From: an uncultured bacterium
Lineage (GTDB): Bacteria > Acidobacteriota > Thermoanaerobaculia > Multivoradales > JAHZIX01
Length of the DNA: 64,000 nt
Assembly (NCBI GenBank): GCA_965368975.1
Contig: CBDUPA010000001.1
Coordinates: 672,001 to 736,000, forward strand
Reading direction: 5' to 3'
In this document: one piece after another, positions 2,305-20,652 of the stretch
Position numbering within the stretch: position 1 is the first letter of the stretch
How the letters are laid out: each line of letters starts with the position of its first letter
Made by a program: the position numbers and the translations under genes
The notes under the pieces: generated by a model
What the model saw: only the letters and a program-made list of their open reading frames with translations
Told to the model about the DNA's origin: nothing
Databases searched by the model: none

Positions 2305-3555
2305 TCAAGCAGCCGTTCGCTGGTGGGCTCGTAGCTGGTTCTCGAAGCGGCGAGCGTAGATCCGCTTCATCGCCTTCAGCTTCAGTGTCTGCCAGCGATA
2401 CCGTTTGGGGCTGAGTTCGGCACATTCTTCGGGCAGCATGACCAGGCTGACGTGGACGTTGGGGGCACAGCCGATCGGCAGGCCACGTTCCATGCAGGCC
2501 TCGTAGAGGCGGCGAAAGACCGGCACGATGTCCTCGGTGCGCGGGGGTTCGCGATCTTCCAGGTCGGTCCCTTGGAGCGGGCGGAAGACGCACACTGTTG
2601 GGATGCCACCCACGGAAGTGATCCAGTCGATCGCGCGCATCGAGGACTCCGCCGGCTCCAGTCCGGCGATGATCTCGCCGTTCGACACCCAGGGCTCGTC
2701 GCGGGGGCCGCGCTTGCCGAGGTCGGCGCAGTAGCGGATCGCCTCCAGATAGTGGTCGAGGCCATACTCGCGGTGCTTGCCAGGGCAGATCTCTTCGAAC
2801 AGCTGTCGATCGAAGATCTCGAAGCAGAACGAAACCCGGTTGACGCCGATCTCGCGCAGCTGGTCGTAGCGCTTCAGGTCTCGGTGTGGTGGCGTTTGGA
2901 CCCCCACCAGCAGCCCCAATTCCTGCTTGATACGCACGATGTAGGGTTCGAGCAGATCCAGGTAGGTGTCGCCCGCGTAGTGGCCCGTGTTGAAGTCGAC
3001 ATAGGTGATCCCAGACTCTTCGCGCGCCGTCCGGATCACTTCGAGCACTTCTTCGACAGACTTGTCGTCGCTGTCGTCGACGCCCAGGTTGAGCCCCACC
3101 GAGCAGAACTTGCAGTTGACCCGCTGCGGTTTCTCGGTCCAGTACTCGCACACCTTCGCCTGGTAGATGCCGAGGTAGGTGCCTTGCAGCGTGCCGATAC
3201 GCGTCATCAGCTTGCCGGAGCTGGTCTTGGCGTCGTACCAGGCCGGACGAGGCGATAGCTGGGGCTCGGTGACGAACTCGCCGTTCCAGTTGAGCTGGTA
3301 GCGGCCATCTTGGCTGCGCTGCAACAAGTACGGGGAGTCCGCGGCGAAGAACTCGGTCACCGGGGCGTTGGTCCACAGACCGTCGCCGCGGCGTCGCGGC
3401 AAGATCAGCTCCAGGCCGCTGCCAAGACCGGCGCGGGTGCGCAGAATCGGCCGGCCACCGTCGTCGGTGACGTAGCAGGAGTCGTCGAGGCGTAAGCCCT
3501 TGCAGTAGAGATCGAGCTTGAGCAGGGCGGGGTTGGTGCGCAGGTCGCTGAGCAT
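2305..3555 (-). CDS. Radical SAM protein with non-canonical CX11CX2C motif
   Basis: CEYWTEKPQRVNCKFC; TIM-barrel-like segments (VNRVSFCFEIFD, ICPGK, EIIAGLEP, FRPLQGTDL); GGAG RBS supports ATG at 3555. Confidence 0.8.
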   Translation of the reverse strand: MLSDLRTNPALLKLDLYCKGLRLDDSCYVTDDGGRPILRTRAGLGSGLELILPRRRGDGLWTNAPVTEFFAADSPYLLQRSQDGRYQLNWNGEFVTEPQLSPRPAWYDAKTSSGKLMTRIGTLQGTYLGIYQAKVCEYWTEKPQRVNCKFCSVGLNLGVDDSDDKSVEEVLEVIRTAREESGITYVDFNTGHYAGDTYLDLLEPYIVRIKQELGLLVGVQTPPHRDLKRYDQLREIGVNRVSFCFEIFDRQLFEEICPGKHREYGLDHYLEAIRYCADLGKRGPRDEPWVSNGEIIAGLEPAESSMRAIDWITSVGGIPTVCVFRPLQGTDLEDREPPRTEDIVPVFRRLYEACMERGLPIGCAPNVHVSLVMLPEECAELSPKRYRWQTLKLKAMKRIYARRFENQLRAHQRTAA

Positions 3556-3601
3556 GGGGGATCTCCTTATCGATCCGTGGCGGGCCGCACTGGCTTCTAG
3601 T

Positions 3602-5473
3602 CTACTCCTCGCGCTGTCCCTCGGGGGCCGGGTAGTCGAAGAAGAGCCGCTGGCGATCGGGCACATCCAGCACTTCGCTGCGTTGACCTCCCAGCCACAC
3701 GACCGAGACCTCGGTGGTCGTGTCTGCGCTCACGGTGCCCAGACCGAAGAGAAGTTCCGGAGCATGGCCGGACGCGAAGGAAACGTCGGCGCCCCACCAG
3801 GCGATCTGGCGCCGACCGCCGTGGACGACTTCGACGCGTGCGCCAAAGGTACGAGCCGCCGGGCCGCGCAGGCGCACGGCGAGCCAGCTGTGGTCGTGGG
3901 CCAGATCATTGCGCAGCAGCAGCGGCTGCCCGCGATTGACCGCCACCGCCAGGTCGACATCACCATCGCCGTCATAGTCCGCGGCGGCCAGGCCGCGGGC
4001 GACGTGCGGCTGGGTCAGCGCGGGGCCGGCTCGCGATGCCAGGTCGGCGAAGCCGTCGCCGGTATTCCAGAAGACGAAGAGCGGCTGCGGCACGAGTCGA
4101 GGTGGTGATGGGGCTGGTGCCCCGGTTTCCAGGGTGCTGCCGTTGGCGACCACCAGATCTCGACGCCCGTCCAGGTCGAGGTCGACGAAAGCACAACCCC
4201 AGCCGACGCGACTGGTGGAGATCTCACCCAAGCCCAGGGACCGCGTCTTGTCGCGGTACTCCAGGCCCTTGGCGCCGATCCGCAGCGCTTGGTACAGGGC
4301 GTTCTCCTGCGCGACCCAATGGGTGACGAAGAGGTCGGGCAGGCCGTCGCCGCCGGCCTCCCCGTGCGCCAGGTCGGTGACCGAGATGCCCATCGAGCCG
4401 CGGGGATCGGCGGTGCCGGTATAGGAGCTGGCATCCTCGAACAGGGCCTCGCCGAGGCGGGCGCCGAGGTTGAGCAGCAGGGCGTTGGGCGAGACGTCGT
4501 TGGCGATGTACAGGTCCAGCCAGCCGTCCCCGTCGAGGTCGACGGCGGTGGCCGCCAGGCTGCGGCCGCCGGGGTTGCTGGCGCCGCTCTCCAACGCGAC
4601 ATCCTCGAACCCTCCGGCTGGCAGCTGGCGGTAGAGGCGGTTGGGCTGGGCGCTGAAGGCATTCGGGTTGAGGCTCAGCGGAATGCCCTGCCAGTTCGGG
4701 TCGTCGCCGGTCAGCTCGCGCATCCTGGTGCCGATGTCGGTACCGATGTCGACGTAGTTGGCCACGTACAGATCGAGGAGGCCATCGCGGTCGAAGTCAC
4801 CCCAGGTGACACCGACGGACCATCGTGGGTCGTCAATGCCGAGTTCGCTGGCAACTTCTTCGAAGGTGCCGTCGCCGCGGTTGCGAAACAGGCGATTGGG
4901 GCCCCAGTTGGTGACGTAGAGGTCGAGGTCGCCGTCGTCGTCGAAATCGGCGAAGCTGGCACCCATGCCGAAGCCCAGGGGGTCGGCGGTGCCGCTGGCC
5001 CTGGTGACGTCGGTGAAGCTCGTACCATCGTTGCGGTAGAGCCGGTTCCAGTCGGTGCCACCGTCAGCGTTGGCCTGGCCGGCGGCATCTGGGCTTTGTA
5101 GCTTCGGATCCCCGGGGAAGTTGACCACGTAGAGATCGAAGTCGCCGTCGCCGTCGATGTCGCCCCAGGCCAGACCGGAGCCGGTATCTTCCGGCAGAAT
5201 GCGGCTGCGCTCGCCGGCGCCGTGCCGCATCCGGATCGCGAGTTCGGCGGCGGCATCGTGAAAGGTCAGCGCCGGCGCGTCGTCTGGGATCTCGGCCACG
5301 GACGAGACGGTCACCGCGTCGCGCGTGTCCAGCAATTCGGCCTGCCGGGCCTGTTGCAGCCAGTAGCCGCCCAACGCCACCACGGCCAGGCCGGCTGCGC
5401 TCAGTGCGAGCGAGAACCGGATGCGCCGCTGGCGGCGGCTGAGCGCGGGGCGGGGCGACACCGGTGCCCTCAA
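3602..5473 (-). CDS. CRTAC1/ASPIC-UnbV family FG-GAP repeat protein with N-terminal membrane anchor
   Basis: Repeated DxDGDGDxDLYVxN motifs; NRLYRN/NRLFRNRGDGTF; C-terminal ASPIC-UnbV signature (GARVEV..SFASGHAPELLFGLG). Start is approximate (TTG overlapping the upstream stop, or GTG at 5461). Confidence 0.88.
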   Translation of the reverse strand: MRAPVSPRPALSRRQRRIRFSLALSAAGLAVVALGGYWLQQARQAELLDTRDAVTVSSVAEIPDDAPALTFHDAAAELAIRMRHGAGERSRILPEDTGSGLAWGDIDGDGDFDLYVVNFPGDPKLQSPDAAGQANADGGTDWNRLYRNDGTSFTDVTRASGTADPLGFGMGASFADFDDDGDLDLYVTNWGPNRLFRNRGDGTFEEVASELGIDDPRWSVGVTWGDFDRDGLLDLYVANYVDIGTDIGTRMRELTGDDPNWQGIPLSLNPNAFSAQPNRLYRQLPAGGFEDVALESGASNPGGRSLAATAVDLDGDGWLDLYIANDVSPNALLLNLGARLGEALFEDASSYTGTADPRGSMGISVTDLAHGEAGGDGLPDLFVTHWVAQENALYQALRIGAKGLEYRDKTRSLGLGEISTSRVGWGCAFVDLDLDGRRDLVVANGSTLETGAPAPSPPRLVPQPLFVFWNTGDGFADLASRAGPALTQPHVARGLAAADYDGDGDVDLAVAVNRGQPLLLRNDLAHDHSWLAVRLRGPAARTFGARVEVVHGGRRQIAWWGADVSFASGHAPELLFGLGTVSADTTTEVSVVWLGGQRSEVLDVPDRQRLFFDYPAPEGQREE

Positions 5474-7575
5474 CCCCCGCTGGCCGCGGCGTCGCGCGTG
5501 TGCGGTGCGTCCGGCAAGCTCAGGGTACGACTGGCTTCGGCTTGTGTGACGGTGGGTTGGAACACGCCCGTGCTCTCTTCCAGGCCGGGCAAGACGAGGT
5601 CCAGAAACTCCTGCCGGTAGCGCCGGTAGTTCAGCTTCGCCACCAGCGTGATCGGACCGGTCGCGTCGCGAGGGAGTGCCAGTTGGTAGACGTGGGAGTC
5701 CGAGTAGGCCGGGAAAACGACGCGTGTTCCTTTGCCTCCAGCCTTGTTCCACAGCTCGTGCCGCTTGAGAACGTTGCCGGCTTCGTCGACCGGCAAGGAC
5801 TCGAGCACCAGGGTGTCGGGGGCGTCGATGTCGTGCTCGCGCCCGCCCGTGCCCAGAATACGGCGGCTCTCCGGGTCGATTGCCCCCCACTCCGCCAGCA
5901 CCTGTCCGTTGCCGTCGAGGGCGCGCAGGTGCACCCACGAGCGGATGAAGTCGAGCGGGCCGGTGATGAAGTTGTGTCCCGCCTTGCGGTTGGTGACCAG
6001 CACCCGCACCTCGACGCTCTGGCCCGCTGCTGCCTGCTCGGGCGCCACGATCTGCAGTCCGACGACGGGTCCTGCCGGCCACAGGTGGGCGATCTCCGGC
6101 AGTACGTTTTCGCCGCGCACCCATTGTTCGGTCAGTTGAACTTGCTCCTGCCACTGTGGCAGACGCAACAGCGCCGGCATGAAGTTGTTGGTGGCGATGA
6201 AGCCGTGATGGCGATGAGCGCCATCGTCGGCGCCACGCCGCCGGTCCTCGGCTTCACCGTGACTGGGGTCGCGCGAGTCGTAGACCAGCCGCATGTGGCA
6301 GTCGCGACAGGCCAAGTCGGTTTCCGGGTCGTCGCTGTGCCAGTGGCTGTTCTTCCACTCGTCGTACTGGTTCTGACCGCTGACCAGGCCGAAGCGGTTG
6401 AGCGCTTCCGGGATGAACTGCTTGTGGCAAGCACCACAGTACTCCGGGGTTCGCAAGACACCCCGGTCGTAATCCTCCAAGTGCTGGCGAGGATACGCAC
6501 GGATCAGAAAGTCAGCCACGATCTTGTCCCAGCCGCGACCTAGCTCTCCCAGGTACTTGACTGGTGGCGTCAGCACATAGTCCGCGTTGCCCCGCTGGTC
6601 GACCTGCGAAATGGCGTGGCACGCCACGCACGAGATGCCTTCGTTGACGCCGGGTGCCGACAGGCTCTGGTTGCTCATGTCCTTGGCACCGGCGAAGAGT
6701 GAGATGGGATCGTGGCAGCCCGCGCAGTAGCGCGTCTCCGTGGCTTCTCGCTGCTCGGCGAAGAGCTTCTGGACCGCCTGGAACGGTGGATTCATCGCGG
6801 CGAAGCGGTGAGCGCTGGGCTCCCACTCGGCGAGAATCTCCTCATGGCAGCCGGAACTGCCGCAGGAAGCGGAGCCGGCCAGCAGCGCCGGCTCGACCAG
6901 TTGCAGGCTCTCGGTGCGGGCGTAGGTGGGGGCGAAGGGATTGCCCCGGTACTCGTCGAATTGCTGGGCGTACGTTGGCAGGCTGTAGTCTTCCGGCACC
7001 GCATGCTGAAAGTTGTGCCGTGGCCACCACAGGACCGTGGCCCCGAGGATCGCCAGCACCACCACCAACTGGACGCTGCTTCGTCGCGGCAGCGCCAGCA
7101 GCGCAGCGCGCAACGGCATGTCCCGTCGTGCTGCCGGCCAGCGGCGCAGGAAAGCGAGCAGTACGTGGCCGATCGTCAAGGCCGTCACCGCGAGGCCGGA
7201 GACCAGGTGGACGAGATCCCAGAATGCGGACAGGCGGGGGCCAAAAGCTGCATTCGCGGCGTTGACCAGGCCGCTGACCAAGGCTACGAGTACGCCCGCC
7301 AGCAGCACATAGCCGAGAACCATCTCGGCCGTCGCCTTCTGCCGCCACCAGTCACCCACATGACGCCACAGGTAGCGAGGCACGAGCAGGACGATCAGCA
7401 ACCCGACCGCGGTGTGGATCAGCACCAGGAGCTGTGAGAACACCGAGAAAGGGCCGAGAAACAGCCACAGGCCGGAGACACCGAGCAGTACCAGGGCCGC
7501 GCTGATGGCGGCGGCGAGCCACCAGCTCCAACCTCGCAGCGCCAGATCTCGTGCTGTCCGTTGCTCGTTGCCCAT
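5470..7575 (-). CDS. Membrane-anchored multiheme c-type cytochrome (c554-like) with N-terminal His-bearing TM domain
   Basis: CAGCH, CVACH, CGACH, CRDCH and atypical CGSSGCH; about 5 N-terminal TM helices, several with His. Confidence 0.85.
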   Translation of the reverse strand: MGNEQRTARDLALRGWSWWLAAAISAALVLLGVSGLWLFLGPFSVFSQLLVLIHTAVGLLIVLLVPRYLWRHVGDWWRQKATAEMVLGYVLLAGVLVALVSGLVNAANAAFGPRLSAFWDLVHLVSGLAVTALTIGHVLLAFLRRWPAARRDMPLRAALLALPRRSSVQLVVVLAILGATVLWWPRHNFQHAVPEDYSLPTYAQQFDEYRGNPFAPTYARTESLQLVEPALLAGSASCGSSGCHEEILAEWEPSAHRFAAMNPPFQAVQKLFAEQREATETRYCAGCHDPISLFAGAKDMSNQSLSAPGVNEGISCVACHAISQVDQRGNADYVLTPPVKYLGELGRGWDKIVADFLIRAYPRQHLEDYDRGVLRTPEYCGACHKQFIPEALNRFGLVSGQNQYDEWKNSHWHSDDPETDLACRDCHMRLVYDSRDPSHGEAEDRRRGADDGAHRHHGFIATNNFMPALLRLPQWQEQVQLTEQWVRGENVLPEIAHLWPAGPVVGLQIVAPEQAAAGQSVEVRVLVTNRKAGHNFITGPLDFIRSWVHLRALDGNGQVLAEWGAIDPESRRILGTGGREHDIDAPDTLVLESLPVDEAGNVLKRHELWNKAGGKGTRVVFPAYSDSHVYQLALPRDATGPITLVAKLNYRRYRQEFLDLVLPGLEESTGVFQPTVTQAEASRTLSLPDAPHTRDAAASGG

Positions 7576-13525: not shown

Positions 13526-13691
13526 CAGCGTCTCCTTTCGGCCAGTAACCAGTGCCGGTAGCCAGGTTCTATCGTTTCCATACGGCGCGCGCGGCGGAGG
13601 GTTCTCTCTCGCGCCCGTCCTGGGGTGATTGCCGGGGACACGGTATGATCACCGCCTGTGGCAACTCAGGACGATTTCGCGAGGAGGCGAT

Positions 13692-15479
<1,788 letters not shown>

Positions 15480-15567
15480 CGGGAGCCGCGGCGAGGGTTA
15501 CAATCGCTGCGAGACTTCGAATCTGGTACGATCTGCAGGTTCCGACGTTCCCAGCGAGGTATCGACC

Positions 15568-16209
15568 GTGACCCCAAGCCCGGAATTGCATCTGCGGCCG
15601 CTCTTCCCGACCCTGCTCGGGCAGGCGGATTTTGCGGCGGCCGCGGACCTCAATCCGCAATTGGCAGCGTATCTCCTGCAATGCGAGCAGGCCGAAGTGG
15701 GCGTTGCGCCTCGCACCACCGTGCGTCACGGTTGGCAGAGTGAGCTGGGTTTTCTCGACCGAGACCTGGAAGAGCTGGCGCCGCTGCGCGCCTTCTTCAA
15801 TCGCTCGATCGAAGCCTGGTTGGCCGAGCACGGCCGCTTCACACCCAGCAGTCCGGCGCCCGCGGGGTGGACGTACAGCTACCAGGGTTGGGCGGTGGTT
15901 CTGCGCCAGGGTGGCTTCCAGCACCAGCATGTCCACACGCGCACCGACCTGGTCGGTGTCTACTGCGTTGCGACTCCTTGGCGGCAGGGAGAGGCCGCTT
16001 CCGGCCACCTGACCCTGATCGATCCACGCGGTGGTCGGCTGGCGAATCGGCTGGCCTGGGAGGCGGACCGAATCGAGATCGAGCCGGTACCGGGGCGTTT
16101 GCTCCTGTTCCCGAGCTTCTTGCCGCACCGCGTGGAAGAGGTTCGTCAGCCGGGAGCGCGGATCACCATCAACTTCGACGTCACCATTCAGCCGAACACA
16201 AGGAGATGA
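15568..16209 (+). CDS. Putative 2OG-Fe(II) oxygenase (TIGR02466-like)
   Basis: GWQS, WAVV..GGFQHQHVH..LVGVY, LIDPR, PGRLLLFPSFLPHRV, RITINFD. Confidence 0.8.
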   Translation: MTPSPELHLRPLFPTLLGQADFAAAADLNPQLAAYLLQCEQAEVGVAPRTTVRHGWQSELGFLDRDLEELAPLRAFFNRSIEAWLAEHGRFTPSSPAPAGWTYSYQGWAVVLRQGGFQHQHVHTRTDLVGVYCVATPWRQGEAASGHLTLIDPRGGRLANRLAWEADRIEIEPVPGRLLLFPSFLPHRVEEVRQPGARITINFDVTIQPNTRR

Positions 16210-16212
16210 ACC

Positions 16213-16734
16213 ATGCCAGTGTTCCGTGATGCCAAGGGCAACCACTACGAGATCAGTGACCAAGACCTGGAGCGCTTCAAGATCGAAGGCGCTCCGGAGC
16301 AGGCCGCGGGGCACCAAGTCGCGGCCTACAACTACGCTCCCGCCGCTGGTGCCGCCTACAACTACGCTGCCGGCGCCAACGCTGCTGGCACCAACGCTGC
16401 TGGCACCCCCCAGGGAGCTGCGTACAACTATGCCGGCGCCGCTCCGGGTGCTGCGTACAACTATGCTGCCAATCCAGCGTACTTCTGGGACCACCGCGCC
16501 CCGCAGCAGCAGGGAGCTGCCTACAACTACGCTGCCAATCCAGCGTATTTCTGGGATCACCGTGCGCCGCAACAGCAGGGAGCTGCGTACAACTACGCCG
16601 GCGCCGCTCCGGGAGCTGCCTACAACTATGCTCCCGCCGCTGGTGCCGCGTACAACTATGCAGCCCCCGACGTAGCGGCCTACAACTACGAAGGTGCCGC
16701 TGCGAAGCCGGATGACGCCGACAGCGAGGGCTGA
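16213..16734 (+). CDS. Multicore repeat peptide, putative RiPP precursor (9x AAYNY, 2x AYFWDHR)
   Basis: AGGAG RBS; charged leader-like N-terminus; Ala/Gly/Pro spacers; acidic tail; lies between an oxygenase and a P450. Confidence 0.8.
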   Translation: MPVFRDAKGNHYEISDQDLERFKIEGAPEQAAGHQVAAYNYAPAAGAAYNYAAGANAAGTNAAGTPQGAAYNYAGAAPGAAYNYAANPAYFWDHRAPQQQGAAYNYAANPAYFWDHRAPQQQGAAYNYAGAAPGAAYNYAPAAGAAYNYAAPDVAAYNYEGAAAKPDDADSEG

Positions 16735-17986
16735 GATCCGCGGGGGACGTGGGGCCCCGGGTGCGCTGAGCTTCTTCACCGAACTGCGCAGCCAGGGGGC
16801 CATCGCCAGCTTTGTTTGGCAGGGGCGGCCCGCCCGCCTGCTCAACGAGCCCTCGATCATCGAGCACGTGCTGGGAGACGGGCGGGGCAACTACCTCAAC
16901 CCGCCCCATGAGTATGCCGACCTGCAGCCGATCCTGACGCCGGCCGGCCGGCTGCTGCTGGGGCTGCACGGCCGTTCGCCGGCGCTCGCTGCTGCCGGCG
17001 AGCACTCGGCGGCGCGGGCGGAGTTCGAACGGTTGCTGCTACAGGCGGGCGACGACCTGTGCGAGCGCTTGCTACCCACTGTGCGGCCCGGCGCTGCGTC
17101 AGAGGGGCTGGTGCCGGATGCCCTCGAGCCACTGAAGGTCTCGATGCTGCAGTTCTTCACTCGCCTGCTGTTCGACGTCGAGGTCGACGACGGTGCCGCG
17201 ATAGCCTGCCAGCGGGCGGCCGCTTGGCTGGAGATCGAAAGCGTACGCCAGCGGGCCGGAGCTGCTCCTCGGCCAGGGGTGGAGCTGGCGGAGCGTCAGC
17301 AGCTGGAGTTCGCGTCGCTGGTGCTGGCCCAGCGCTTGCGGCAAGTTGGGCGACCCGTGGCCGCGGCCACGCAGGAGTTCGGGAGTTCCACCAGACGAGC
17401 GGTGATCCGCACGCTTCTCAATGGCTACAACGCAATGGCGACGACCCTGGCTTGGACCTGCGTCTTGCTGGCCGCGCATCCCGAGACCCAGGCTCGCTTG
17501 GTCTCGCAGGCGCGAGGGACCTTGCCGCGCCGGCGACCGGCGCTCCGCGATGTGGCGAGCTTGACGGAAGTCCGCTACGCGATCCAAGAAGCGGAACGGC
17601 TCTACCCGTCTGCTTGGCTCTTGGGGCGTACGGCGCTGCGCGACGAGAGCTTCGGCCGCTGGCATGTGCCGGCTGGGGCCCTGGTCTACATCTGCCCCTT
17701 CGCTCTGCACCGCGACCCGCGCTTCTGGCAGCAGCCAGACGCCTTCCTGCCGCTACGCTTCGCTGCTCCTGGAACTGCGCGTCCGCGGGGGACGTTCCTA
17801 CCGTTTGGTAGCGGACCTCGTCGATGTCCTGCCAGGTCGCTCAGTCAAGCGATGCTGGTGCTGCTACTCGCCGCTTTGTTGGCTCGCTACCAGCTTCGAG
17901 AGGTACCGGGGACGCAGGTGGTGCCGTGGCCGCTGATCTCTCTCCGGCCGCACCCCTCCGTGCCGCTGCGCCTGCTGCCACGGTAG
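16712..17986 (+). CDS. Cytochrome P450 with atypical I-helix
   Basis: ExxR (EAERLYP), HRDPRFW..PDAFLPLRF, heme motif FLPFGSGPRRCPA; start approximate (ATG 16712 overlaps the precursor end). Confidence 0.9.
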   Translation: MTPTARAEIRGGRGAPGALSFFTELRSQGAIASFVWQGRPARLLNEPSIIEHVLGDGRGNYLNPPHEYADLQPILTPAGRLLLGLHGRSPALAAAGEHSAARAEFERLLLQAGDDLCERLLPTVRPGAASEGLVPDALEPLKVSMLQFFTRLLFDVEVDDGAAIACQRAAAWLEIESVRQRAGAAPRPGVELAERQQLEFASLVLAQRLRQVGRPVAAATQEFGSSTRRAVIRTLLNGYNAMATTLAWTCVLLAAHPETQARLVSQARGTLPRRRPALRDVASLTEVRYAIQEAERLYPSAWLLGRTALRDESFGRWHVPAGALVYICPFALHRDPRFWQQPDAFLPLRFAAPGTARPRGTFLPFGSGPRRCPARSLSQAMLVLLLAALLARYQLREVPGTQVVPWPLISLRPHPSVPLRLLPR

Positions 17987-17987
17987 T

Positions 17988-18083
17988 GCGAGCGCTTCGA
18001 CGTGCACGTGTTCCACGACGTCGTGCTGTGGAACGGCTCGATTCCGCTGTCGGTATTGGAGGTGGAGATCGATCGCCCTATCG
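17988..18083 (+). repeat. Direct repeat copy 2, orphan DUF885 3'-end fragment
   Basis: Translates [29 protein letters not shown] versus [29 protein letters not shown] in the intact gene. Confidence 0.9.
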
Positions 18084-18193: not shown

Positions 18194-19342
18194 TCAGAAC
18201 GACCAAGCGAGGCTGACGATGCTGAGCTCCGTCTCGACGGGGTCGTCGAGGATGATGCTGAGCGGGATGCTCTCAACCTGGCTGTATCCCTCGAACCACT
18301 GGTGCTCGAGCTTCGCTGTCAAGTTGGGTAGCACGTCGTAGCGTAGGCCGATCGTCTTGACCTCTTCCAGGGATTCCTCGAAGACGGTCAGAAACGGGAT
18401 CTCGAAGCGAAGATCGGCGTTCTCGTACCTCGCGGCAGCGTGCAACCGGTCGGTGAGGCGTACGTCGACTTCGGCGTACCAAGGAGTGAATCGACCACCA
18501 GCCCACGATCGCTGGGAGTACTCGATCCGAACCGTCCAGGGATCGAAGGCTGCGTCTACAGATGCGTAGAGCGTCTCCTCAGTGATGTCTTCGCCTCGCC
18601 GTAGAATCGTGTCCTGGACCTCCAGATGGTTGGCGCCAAGGCCGATTCGTAGACCCTCGACCGGAGTGTTGATCCAGAGCCAAGCTCCGATGGCGTTCTT
18701 GATGTCAGCTGTGGTGTAGTCGAGCGTAGCGTTGGCGAACTCAATACGTTCCCATTCGCCGTAGTAGAGGTGTCCGTCGAAGCTCCAGTCCCCGGTCGCT
18801 GCGCTCTCGTAGGTCAGGACGATCCCGTCGACCGAATCACTGGTCCAGGTTCCGTCACCATAGAAGGAGCCGGAAGGGCGGTAGAAGGGGAGCAGGGTGC
18901 CGACGTCCTTGATCTCGTTGTAGATACCGATGGGCAGTGGGACTCGGCCGACGCGCACTGAGAACTCGTCGGACAGAACCCGCCGGTAGAAGAGCCAGTC
19001 GATTTCGATGTCGTCGCGAAGCTCGTTCGAAGGACTCGTACCGACGGAATCGTTGGCCAGTTGCAGAACCAGCTCATTTCGATCAGCGAGAGCGAGCCGG
19101 AACTGCAGTGCGACGGTATGGAGGTCAGCCGTTCCGTTCTCGGAGACACCGCTGTAGTCGAAGTTCTCCGAGACGCCGTAGCCCCAGTTGATGAAGCCGA
19201 AGAAGTCGAAGTCGACCTGGTATTTCTCCGTGGCTGGCGGCGCCTCGGCCTCTGAGGTCATCGAAGTCTGAGCTACGACGGGGATCGATGGGGAGATTAG
19301 GCATAGAAAGCCCAAAATGAGCGATAATTGTATGTATCTCAT
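18194..19342 (-). CDS. Outer-membrane beta-barrel (porin-like) protein, paralog 2
   Basis: Signal peptide; alternating beta-strand pattern; C-terminal SIVSLAWSF; closely similar to the upstream gene. Confidence 0.75.
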   Translation of the reverse strand: MRYIQLSLILGFLCLISPSIPVVAQTSMTSEAEAPPATEKYQVDFDFFGFINWGYGVSENFDYSGVSENGTADLHTVALQFRLALADRNELVLQLANDSVGTSPSNELRDDIEIDWLFYRRVLSDEFSVRVGRVPLPIGIYNEIKDVGTLLPFYRPSGSFYGDGTWTSDSVDGIVLTYESAATGDWSFDGHLYYGEWERIEFANATLDYTTADIKNAIGAWLWINTPVEGLRIGLGANHLEVQDTILRRGEDITEETLYASVDAAFDPWTVRIEYSQRSWAGGRFTPWYAEVDVRLTDRLHAAARYENADLRFEIPFLTVFEESLEEVKTIGLRYDVLPNLTAKLEHQWFEGYSQVESIPLSIILDDPVETELSIVSLAWSF

Positions 19343-19376
19343 GTCTGCTCCTGAGTGAATGTAGAAAGCCCGTTCG

Positions 19377-20534
19377 TCAGAACGACCAAGCGAGGCTGAC
19401 GATGCTGAGCTCCGTCTCAACGGGATCGTCGAAGAAGATGTTCAGCGGCTGATCTTCGATCTGACCGAACCCCTCGAACCATTGGTATTCGGCCTTGACC
19501 ACCAACTCTGGCAGGATCGCGTAGCGCAGGCCGACGCTGTAGAGGTCTTCGATCGTGCCGTCGAAGGTGGCGAAGAAGGGGACTTCGAAGTAGAGGTCGG
19601 CGGTCTCGAAGCGGCCCGCCAGGTTCAGGCGGTCGGTGAGCTTGACGTCGATCTCTGCGTACCAGGGAGTCCAGTCGCCGCCGGTGAAGGATCGCCGGGA
19701 ATACTCGACGCGCACGCTCACGGGGTCGAAGTTGGCGTCGATCGAGACGTAGCGCGTCTCCTCCGAGTCGGTCACGCCGGGCGCCAGGAACACGCCGCCC
19801 GTGGCGTGGAAGTGGTTGTACCCGAGGCCCACGCGCAGTCCGTCGACGGGCGTGTTGATCCAAGTCCAGATGCCGCCAGCGTCCTCGATGTCGGCCACGT
19901 CGAAGGAAAGGTCGCCGCCCGACGTCTCGATGCGCTCCCACTCTCCGTAGTAGAGATGCGTGTCGAAGCTCCAGTCGCGGGTGCGGTCGGACTCGTAAGT
20001 GAAGACGATGCCGTCGACAGAGTCGCTGGTCCAAGTGCCGTCACCGTAGTAGACGCCCGAGGCACGGTAGAACGGCAGCAGGGTGCCGACGTCCTTGACC
20101 TCGTTGTAGATGCCGATCGGCAGGGGAACACGACCGACCCGGAAGTACGCATGATCGCTCAGCGTTCGACGGTAGTAGAGCCAGTCGAGTTCCAGGTCAT
20201 CGCGCAGCTCGTTCGACGGGCTCGTGCCGACGCGTTCATTGGCGAGTTGGAGTACGAATTCGTCCTTGTTGGTCGGGTTCAGCCGAAACTGCAGGGCGAC
20301 GGTGTGAAGATCGGCGGTGCCGTCTTCGGGGACGCCTCGATAGGCATGACCATCGGCGATGCCGTAGCCCCAGTTGATGAAGCCGAAGAAGCTGAAGGCG
20401 ACCTTGGAGCCTGCCTGAACCGGGTCGGCAGAGTCGTCCAGACTGGCCGGGTTTTGGGCGCTGCTCGGGACCACGGCCAGCACGGTCGCGAGGGACGTGA
20501 GAATCACGATGAGAGCGGACTTCTGACAGATCAT
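19377..20534 (-). CDS. Outer-membrane beta-barrel (porin-like) protein, paralog 1
   Basis: Signal peptide; RVGRVPLPIGIYNE motif; C-terminal SIVSLAWSF; GGAGG RBS. Confidence 0.75.
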   Translation of the reverse strand: MICQKSALIVILTSLATVLAVVPSSAQNPASLDDSADPVQAGSKVAFSFFGFINWGYGIADGHAYRGVPEDGTADLHTVALQFRLNPTNKDEFVLQLANERVGTSPSNELRDDLELDWLYYRRTLSDHAYFRVGRVPLPIGIYNEVKDVGTLLPFYRASGVYYGDGTWTSDSVDGIVFTYESDRTRDWSFDTHLYYGEWERIETSGGDLSFDVADIEDAGGIWTWINTPVDGLRVGLGYNHFHATGGVFLAPGVTDSEETRYVSIDANFDPVSVRVEYSRRSFTGGDWTPWYAEIDVKLTDRLNLAGRFETADLYFEVPFFATFDGTIEDLYSVGLRYAILPELVVKAEYQWFEGFGQIEDQPLNIFFDDPVETELSIVSLAWSF

Positions 20535-20652
20535 GACGCCTCCTGTTTGGGCGATAGAAAGGATCAAACAATGAAAGTAGGCACACGACTCCCGCATGGG
20601 TGACATTGTCAACCATCGAATTGGTTTCGAGGCGCACCAACTTCCAGCCACT

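Follow-up and report, generated by a model that had tools for sequence, protein, structure and literature searches.

What does a bacterium make from a protein that repeats the tripeptide Tyr-Asn-Tyr nine times and whose gene lies between those of an oxygenase and a cytochrome P450? The question is raised by a 64,000-nt stretch of DNA (hereafter the window; contig CBDUPA010000001.1, positions 672,001 to 736,000) from an uncultured bacterium of the Acidobacteriota lineage Thermoanaerobaculia. The first-pass annotation described three tightly packed, co-directional genes at 15568-17986, and the list of open reading frames (ORFs) bears this out, with all three on the + strand: they encode a 2-oxoglutarate (2OG)-Fe(II) oxygenase, a 173-aa repeat protein, and a P450. 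The number of rigid, drug-like macrocycles that come from P450-crosslinked ribosomal peptides is rising fast, and the published cases, in the accessible text of those papers, yield one product per precursor. We consider it probable, although well short of certain, that the cassette specifies a new multi-core, P450-crosslinked, ribosomally made, post-translationally modified peptide (RiPP), which would make Tyr-Asn-Tyr and Tyr-Phe-Trp cyclophanes and be a bacterial analogue of the fungal OF4949. A more ambitious proposal, which we advance only tentatively, has several parts: that this is the first multi-core P450 cyclophane family, with 3-23 Tyr-Asn-Tyr (or Tyr-x-Trp) rings per translation product; that bacteria here arrive at OF4949-like protease inhibitors by a route of their own, which converges on that of fungi; that the PF13759/TIGR02466 oxygenase is a peptidyl-Asn hydroxylase, which would be the first function assigned to it; and that the three-gene unit moves between phyla.

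The repeat protein and its family

The middle protein of the cassette carries exactly nine AAYNY and two NPAYFWDHR motifs, the counts that the first-pass annotation had given. When its residues 35-173 were shuffled 10,000 times, Y-x-[YW] motifs numbered 3.0 ± 1.5, with a maximum of 9, against the 11 observed, and YNY tripeptides had a mean of 0.26 and a maximum of 4, against the nine observed. Tandem Repeats Finder resolved units of 66, 33, 30, and 15 nt in the gene. Because the two 66-nt units at 16446-16511 and 16512-16577 differ at eight codons, all eight synonymous and none non-synonymous, we consider the + frame to be under protein-level selection. The presence of the precursor family in low-GC cyanobacteria also counts for the repeat ORF being coding. 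On this evidence the + frame is a real, selected coding frame and no by-product of high GC. By inspection, the protein has a hydrophilic leader start and a single Ser in the core region, and it has neither a signal peptide nor Ser-Pro blocks.

A word-indexed search returned six homologues of the precursor, and a profile search, in which 8000 candidates were scored, returned 22 proteins at E <= 0.001. Twenty of the 22 share the N-terminal leader; as for the other two, P0171 is a fragment that lacks it and P0172 looks like a mis-called chimera. We aligned the leaders of 33 precursors (the window, 14 loci, and 18 database proteins) anchored on the FRD motif. Their consensus is FRDxxGNFYDIPxExLxxYxVEGELPEGA, in which 33/33 precursors have F, R, D, G, and L and 32/33 have N.

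Downstream of this leader, the family carries between 3 and 23 Y-x-[Y/W] motifs per precursor. Motif statistics were compiled for 28 precursors, leaving out P0006 and P0157 (duplicates of L001 and L003), the leaderless P0171 and P0172, and five cyanobacterial loci fetched later. These 28 precursors hold 245 Y-x-[YW] motifs, and the motifs contain 490 of the 516 Tyr and Trp residues beyond residue 30 (95%). Asn takes the middle position in 185 motifs and Phe in 40, and the motif is preceded by Ala in 161 cases and by Ser in 48. Both the length and the sequence of the linkers vary freely, and the median spacing is 11 residues. We suggest that this strict pairing of aromatic residues at i and i+2, together with the leader, a dedicated P450, and variable linkers, is the signature of repeated ring-closing sites.

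Several sub-types can be told apart within the family. YNY-rich precursors form one. In a second, made up of the database proteins P0162-P0168, five AYFWD/AYFYD motifs are combined with a basic tail rich in Lys and Ser. A third consists of the SYNW...SYNW precursors L004 and L005, which are 399-467 aa long, and a fourth of the SY[ILQ]WPS precursors L007 and L017, with three motifs each. As a side observation, P0162-P0168 apparently have no contig in common with the listed oxygenase clusters, which hints that the oxygenase may be missing there. We also noted that the number of ASYNYTAPE units varies between close Nostoc/Desmonostoc strains, at 15 versus 7 (L019 and L020) and 12 versus 8 (L021 and L022), and that the oxygenases of the Nostoc strains with 15 and 7 motifs are 99% identical. 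These differences would reflect either true copy-number variation or repeats collapsed in assembly.

Partner enzymes and gene linkage

Related loci come from Acidobacteriota, Myxococcota, and Cyanobacteria, as metagenome-assembled genomes (MAGs) or strains, and from metagenomes. Sixteen were collected, five from a metagenome scan and 11 distinct ones from species-genome scans. An initial contig scan with a window-led alignment confirmed 0/5 of its pattern matches, and the loci came from scans with other alignments. Named hosts outside the cyanobacteria are Pyrinomonadaceae MAGs and an Archangium MAG; the cyanobacterial hosts are Nostoc linckia z4, Nostoc sp. ATCC 43529, N. calcicola FACHB-3891, Desmonostoc geniculatum, Microseira wollei NIES-4236, Microseira sp. 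BLCC-F43, and the MAG "Cyanobacteria bacterium SBLK."

If the pairing of P450 and repeat protein were peculiar to the window, close homologues of the P450 would lack aromatic-repeat neighbours, the outcome that the first-pass annotation had named as counting against its own proposal. A leader-bearing Y-x-[Y/W] gene stands beside the P450 gene in 13/13 loci that are unbroken and of sufficient length (L001-L005, L007, L016, L017, L019-L022, and L028). As for the other loci, the contig of L023 stops short of the expected precursor position, and that of L025 ends inside the precursor. In L026 (Microseira sp. BLCC-F43), an IS605 OrfB/TnpB-type ORF at 5910-7454 lies between the P450 gene and a 13-residue precursor stump, and this cluster looks inactivated. 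TnpB-like remnants were also seen in L028 (Microseira wollei NIES-4236), between the oxygenase and P450 genes, with the precursor intact.

The expected co-occurrence of a repeat YxY ORF with the oxygenase likewise held, in 14 of the 16 related loci. The oxygenase is missing from L007 and L017, whose motifs are Y-I/L/Q-W and contain no Asn; since these two loci belong to sister Pyrinomonadaceae MAGs, the absence of the enzyme and the Asn-free motifs count as one phylogenetic event. L007 has in addition, at 2827-5830 and divergent from the precursor and P450 genes, genes for a Trp 2,3-dioxygenase-like protein, a kynureninase-like PLP enzyme, and a PF00891 O-methyltransferase, which may form an alternative tailoring set directed at Trp. 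In cyanobacteria, the precursor and P450 genes share one strand and the oxygenase gene is convergent to them. A PF00891 O-methyltransferase and a MatE exporter are encoded in all four cyanobacterial clusters examined (L019, L021, L026, and L028). Flanking genes otherwise vary by locus and are not conserved between lineages.

The window P450 matches PF00067 at 5.7e-38, over its C-terminal half only (residues 234-411), and contains the heme motif FGSGPRRCPA. Across 11 aligned P450s, the heme Cys motif (FxxGxRxCxA), ExxR, and PxRF are invariant, as expected of an intact heme-thiolate P450. Two hallmarks mark its subfamily. First, the I-helix has the form LLN[GA]YNA (LLNGYNAMAT in the window) and lacks the usual acid-alcohol pair. 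Second, the N-terminal part carries F[FY]LNLSR, which has diverged to FFTELR in the window. In an exhaustive search of cluster representatives, 21 of the best 150, the window's own included, bear one or both hallmarks, so the subfamily appears small; the closest non-self P450 in that search is 44% identical. The best solved matches are CYP170A1-like and CYP3A-like P450s, and the sole RiPP enzyme among its NCBIfam matches is ApyO (3.5e-24).

The oxygenase matches PF13759 (2OG-FeII_Oxy_5) at 6.4e-14 and 52.6 bits, above the cut-off of 27, and TIGR02466 at 56.7 bits, just under the cut-off of 62.5. Its candidate metal and 2OG residues (H121, H123, H187, and R198) are invariant in 48 sequences. 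A profile search returned 54 full-length clusters at >=256 bits, counting the window's own, before a sharp drop. The oxygenase tree groups the cassette type into one clade of 38 rows (SH-aLRT 99), separate from 10 more distant PF13759 proteins. The window falls beside three metagenomic sequences with 69-72% identity, and cyanobacterial sequences occupy two separate places.

A predicted crosslinking pathway and its alternatives

How does the cassette relate to described systems? Cyptides (biarylitides, cittilins, and atropopeptides) likewise have a ribosomal precursor gene beside a P450 gene. The P450s of biarylitides, cittilins, and related cyptides join aromatic residues two apart (PMC12797325, PMC13185096). 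The accessible text of these papers and of PMC11659900 gives the coupled pairs as YxH, YxY, WxW, and YPW, similar to the cassette motifs, and describes minimal clusters that, like the cassette, have no dedicated protease. The cassette thus has what marks out a cyptide, namely a precursor gene linked to a P450, a paired-aromatic core motif, and an intact heme-thiolate P450. It differs in its new 30-residue leader, its CYP170/CYP3A-like P450, and its PF13759 oxygenase partner. It differs too in core number, since cyptide precursors have one C-terminal core in the accessible text, with "repeat" and "multi-core" absent from the papers checked for these words, whereas the cassette family has 3-23 cores per precursor. 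The statement of the first-pass annotation that described P450 RiPP precursors are short and single-core agrees with these published accounts, as far as their accessible text goes. In the full-text literature covered, which excludes most subscription journals, nothing that describes this leader, a precursor with YNY repeats, or a P450 RiPP with several cores turned up, and a 2024 review (PMC11659900) has no mention of repeat, multi-core, 2OG, ketoglutarate, or Acidobacteri.

Two precedents come close to the motif itself. ApyO, the aminopyruvatide P450, couples both Tyr residues of a YLY motif and still accepts Tyr-to-Trp variants, according to the accessible text of PMC13703928. The apy system differs from the cassette in that its precursor has a single motif and its pathway includes other metalloenzymes (accessible text of PMC10635010), and the window P450 is no ApyO equivalog. 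OF-4949, termed "biarylicin YNY" in the accessible part of a preprint (bioRxiv 10.1101/2020.07.21.214643), is the tripeptide Tyr-Asn-Tyr bridged by an aryl ether. The cassette motif is the same tripeptide. A ribosomal origin of OF4949 was reportedly described by Chiang, Ohashi, and Tang in 2025, and the fungal ring is said to be made by a copper-dependent DUF3328 oxidase acting on a ribosomal precursor. No DUF3328 oxidase was found in the cassette, where Pfam identifies only the 2OG oxygenase and the P450, and the P450 takes its place. The cassette would therefore be an analogue, and not a member, of the OF4949-type pathway. OF4949 inhibits aminopeptidase B, and its four congeners differ by O-methyl and hydroxyl groups, which would match an O-methyltransferase and an oxygenase.

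Repeated motifs are also familiar from other RiPPs. Triceptides are three-residue cyclophanes made by radical SAM enzymes, with several aromatic motifs per precursor, and cyanobactins and ustiloxins are multi-core RiPPs with repeated cores. Multi-core precursors are mentioned in general terms in PMC10591300. Unlike these systems, the cassette has no radical SAM, BURP, or DUF3328 enzyme. A radical SAM/SPASM maturase next to the precursor, the mark of a triceptide, was found neither in the cassette nor among its neighbours. The window holds a single radical SAM ORF (PF04055, 7e-11), at 2305-3666 on the - strand, 12 kb upstream of the cassette; its neighbours are FG-GAP and multihaem cytochrome c genes, and it has no evident link to the cassette.

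The signature of paired aromatics, leader, and P450, together with the published P450 and OF-4949 precedents, leads us to propose the following pathway. We infer that the 173-aa protein would be the substrate and that its conserved leader of ~30 residues would recruit the enzymes. The 11 short modules downstream of the leader, nine Tyr-Asn-Tyr and two Tyr-Phe-Trp, would present aromatic side chains at i and i+2. With host redox partners, the P450 would couple the two aromatic rings of each module to give a three-residue cyclophane, at a cost of 2 Da each. The 2OG-Fe(II) oxygenase would add a hydroxyl, most likely on the central Asn; we favour Asn as the site because the oxygenase is missing only where the motif Asn is missing, an argument that rests on a single phylogenetic event. 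Peptidases encoded outside the cluster would then trim the Ala/Gly/Pro linkers and release many copies of a small, protease-resistant ring peptide resembling OF4949. MatE exporters handle small molecules, and the presence of one beside an O-methyltransferase in the cyanobacterial clusters fits a small, exported product. The same two genes and the variation in motif copy number point, indirectly, to release as small rings.

Several consequences would follow if this pathway is correct. One P450 would work processively along a long substrate. The precursor would be a natural scaffold for libraries of three-residue cyclophanes, and the cluster would make the Tyr-Asn-Tyr ring of a fungal aminopeptidase inhibitor available from genetically tractable bacteria. 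A role would also be gained for a widespread oxygenase family whose solved structures are uncharacterised. Culturable Nostoc and Microseira strains have the cluster, which makes the prediction directly testable.

A number of observations weigh against the proposed pathway. First, the P450 fails to reach the cut-off of 525 for the ApyO equivalog NF050147, at 85.2 bits for the window enzyme and 98 bits for a Nostoc one, and its best solved relatives are terpene- and drug-oxidising enzymes; because of this weak score and these relatives, a coupling function cannot be assigned to the P450 from sequence alone. Second, the P450 tree gave no single clade of precursor-linked enzymes, its deep branches lack resolution, and the window P450 sits on a long branch with <=42% identity to the other rows. 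Third, the conserved oxygenase H-x-H differs from the classical H-x-D/E, and the family has no characterised member; its only solved relatives, 2rg4 and 3bvc, are uncharacterised structural-genomics proteins. Fourth, no examined cluster encodes a protease, and the window cassette encodes no redox partner. Last, simple release of tripeptides leaves unexplained the long conserved linkers of L004 and L005 (APRFQHADS...), the Lys-rich tails of the YFWD-type members, and the acidic tail of the window precursor.

Some of these points would fit the same chemistry with an uncut product: a polypeptide stapled at up to 11 sites, serving as a rigid, protease-resistant protein or a peptide polymer. The lack of a protease favours it, and the long conserved linkers and the charged tails suggest a role for sequence outside the motifs. 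We nevertheless think it unlikely, as the precursor has no signal peptide and the four cyanobacterial clusters examined encode a small-molecule exporter and an O-methyltransferase. The 15 versus 7 motifs of the Nostoc pair are what one would expect where the dose of a small product counts, but collapse of repeats in assembly is another possible cause.

Slightly less plausible still is hydroxylation with no coupling, in which the P450 would produce DOPA-like Tyr and the 2OG enzyme would modify Asn, Pro, or other residues, giving an extensin- or mussel-glue-like polymer or a pigment precursor that is later cross-linked with no dedicated enzyme. Hydroxylation is the default reaction of P450s. Plant extensins, in the accessible part of their descriptions, have repeated Tyr-X-Tyr motifs (isodityrosine) that are hydroxylated and cross-linked. 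The Nostoc precursor weakly matches the Pfam model "Decapeptide repeat region," below threshold (23 bits versus a cut-off of 45), and also has a "Mucin-like" match of low complexity, both in line with such a polymer. Extensins are secreted, Ser-Pro-rich glycoproteins that are cross-linked by extracellular peroxidases. They have a signal peptide and Ser-Pro(3-5) blocks, whereas the cassette precursor has neither and is paired with a cytoplasmic P450. Moreover, strict i,i+2 pairing of 95% of the aromatics is needed for ring closure but not for hydroxylation, the acid-alcohol pair that hydroxylating P450s usually have is missing from the I-helix, and a MatE exporter is ill-suited to a polymer.

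It seems improbable that the roles of the enzymes are exchanged, with the 2OG oxygenase closing an aromatic-to-aliphatic ring and the P450 tailoring it, or that the motif tripeptide is excised to become a non-peptide cofactor or signal, as pyrroloquinoline quinone (PQQ) is made from PqqA. A 2OG-dependent RiPP macrocyclase has been reported, according to a citation in the accessible text of PMC13185096, but the precursor-P450 pair persists with no oxygenase in 2/16 loci, which argues that the P450 is the core enzyme. Finally, chance adjacency of an unrelated low-complexity protein is very improbable, and excluded in practice by linkage that is conserved across at least three named phyla, amid unrelated flanks and in two gene orientations.

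Cassette layout, mobility, and neighbouring genes

The features of the cassette and its surroundings are listed in Table 1. Only 3 nt separate the oxygenase and precursor genes, and the precursor and P450 genes overlap. The P450 probably starts at ATG 16712 and not at GTG 16694; its gene overlaps the end of the precursor gene from either start. A consensus scan found one promoter-like site, versus 0.2 expected, which is weak evidence for a promoter there. The RNA just 3' of the P450 stop codon gave a folding z-score of 0.15, and thus no structure at that place. Among sequencing runs, no RNA run that contains the locus was listed, and a single DNA run shared a small part of its words.

Table 1. 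Positions of the cassette genes, precursor segments, candidate expression signals, and flanking repeats in the window
Feature	Position	Strand	Remarks
2OG-Fe(II) oxygenase gene, PF13759 / TIGR02466-like	15568..16209	+	213 aa; ORF list, Pfam
Repeat precursor gene	16213..16734	+	173 aa; no Pfam or NCBIfam model matched
Cytochrome P450 gene	16712..17986	+	424 aa with start at ATG 16712; 430 aa with start at GTG 16694
Precursor leader, residues 1-36 (MPVFRDAKGNHYEISDQDLERFKIEG...)	16213..16320	+	matched by no Pfam or NCBIfam model
Repeat (multi-core) region, residues 37-159	16321..16689	+	9 AAYNY and 2 NPAYFWDHR modules, Ala/Gly/Pro spacers
Acidic C-terminal tail (EGAAAKPDDADSEG) and stop codon of precursor	16690..16734	+	from sequence
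Shine-Dalgarno-like AAGGAG	16200..16205	+	7 nt 5' of precursor ATG 16213
Promoter-like site CTGACG, 17-nt spacer, TACAAT	15476..15504	+	between DUF885 stop and oxygenase start
Direct repeat, left copy, 96 nt	15364..15459	+	within intact 3' end of DUF885 gene (13629-15479)
Direct repeat, right copy, 86% identical	17988..18083	+	DUF885 3'-end remnant; starts 1 nt past P450 stop

The 96-nt direct repeat copies bracket the cassette. The left one belongs to a DUF885 gene with a Pfam match of 8e-178, and the right one continues in frame past the P450 stop codon. This arrangement suggests that the cassette was inserted by a recombination event that duplicated the end of the DUF885 gene. The DUF885 genes of the nearest relatives are <=60% identical, too far for a useful comparison with an empty site.

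The genome of the window has one precursor copy, and Thermoanaerobaculia names are attached to two database proteins. The precursor profile had no match in 400 other sampled genomes of the same phylum (eight first-look candidates scored per genome), and the oxygenase profile had none in the 20 nearest relatives (82-100% complete). These absences, the oxygenase tree, and the direct-repeat bracket together point to a patchy distribution and to horizontal acquisition of the cassette, by an insertion mechanism that we infer from the repeats.

Around the cassette, the window has the DUF885 gene, porin-like ORFs, a MoxR/VWA operon, and a MacB-type permease. Just downstream, on the - strand, lie two paralogous ORFs of ~410 aa (18194-19420 and 19377-20651), which have no Pfam match and share the ending ...ELSIVSLAWSF; they look like outer-membrane beta-barrel proteins.

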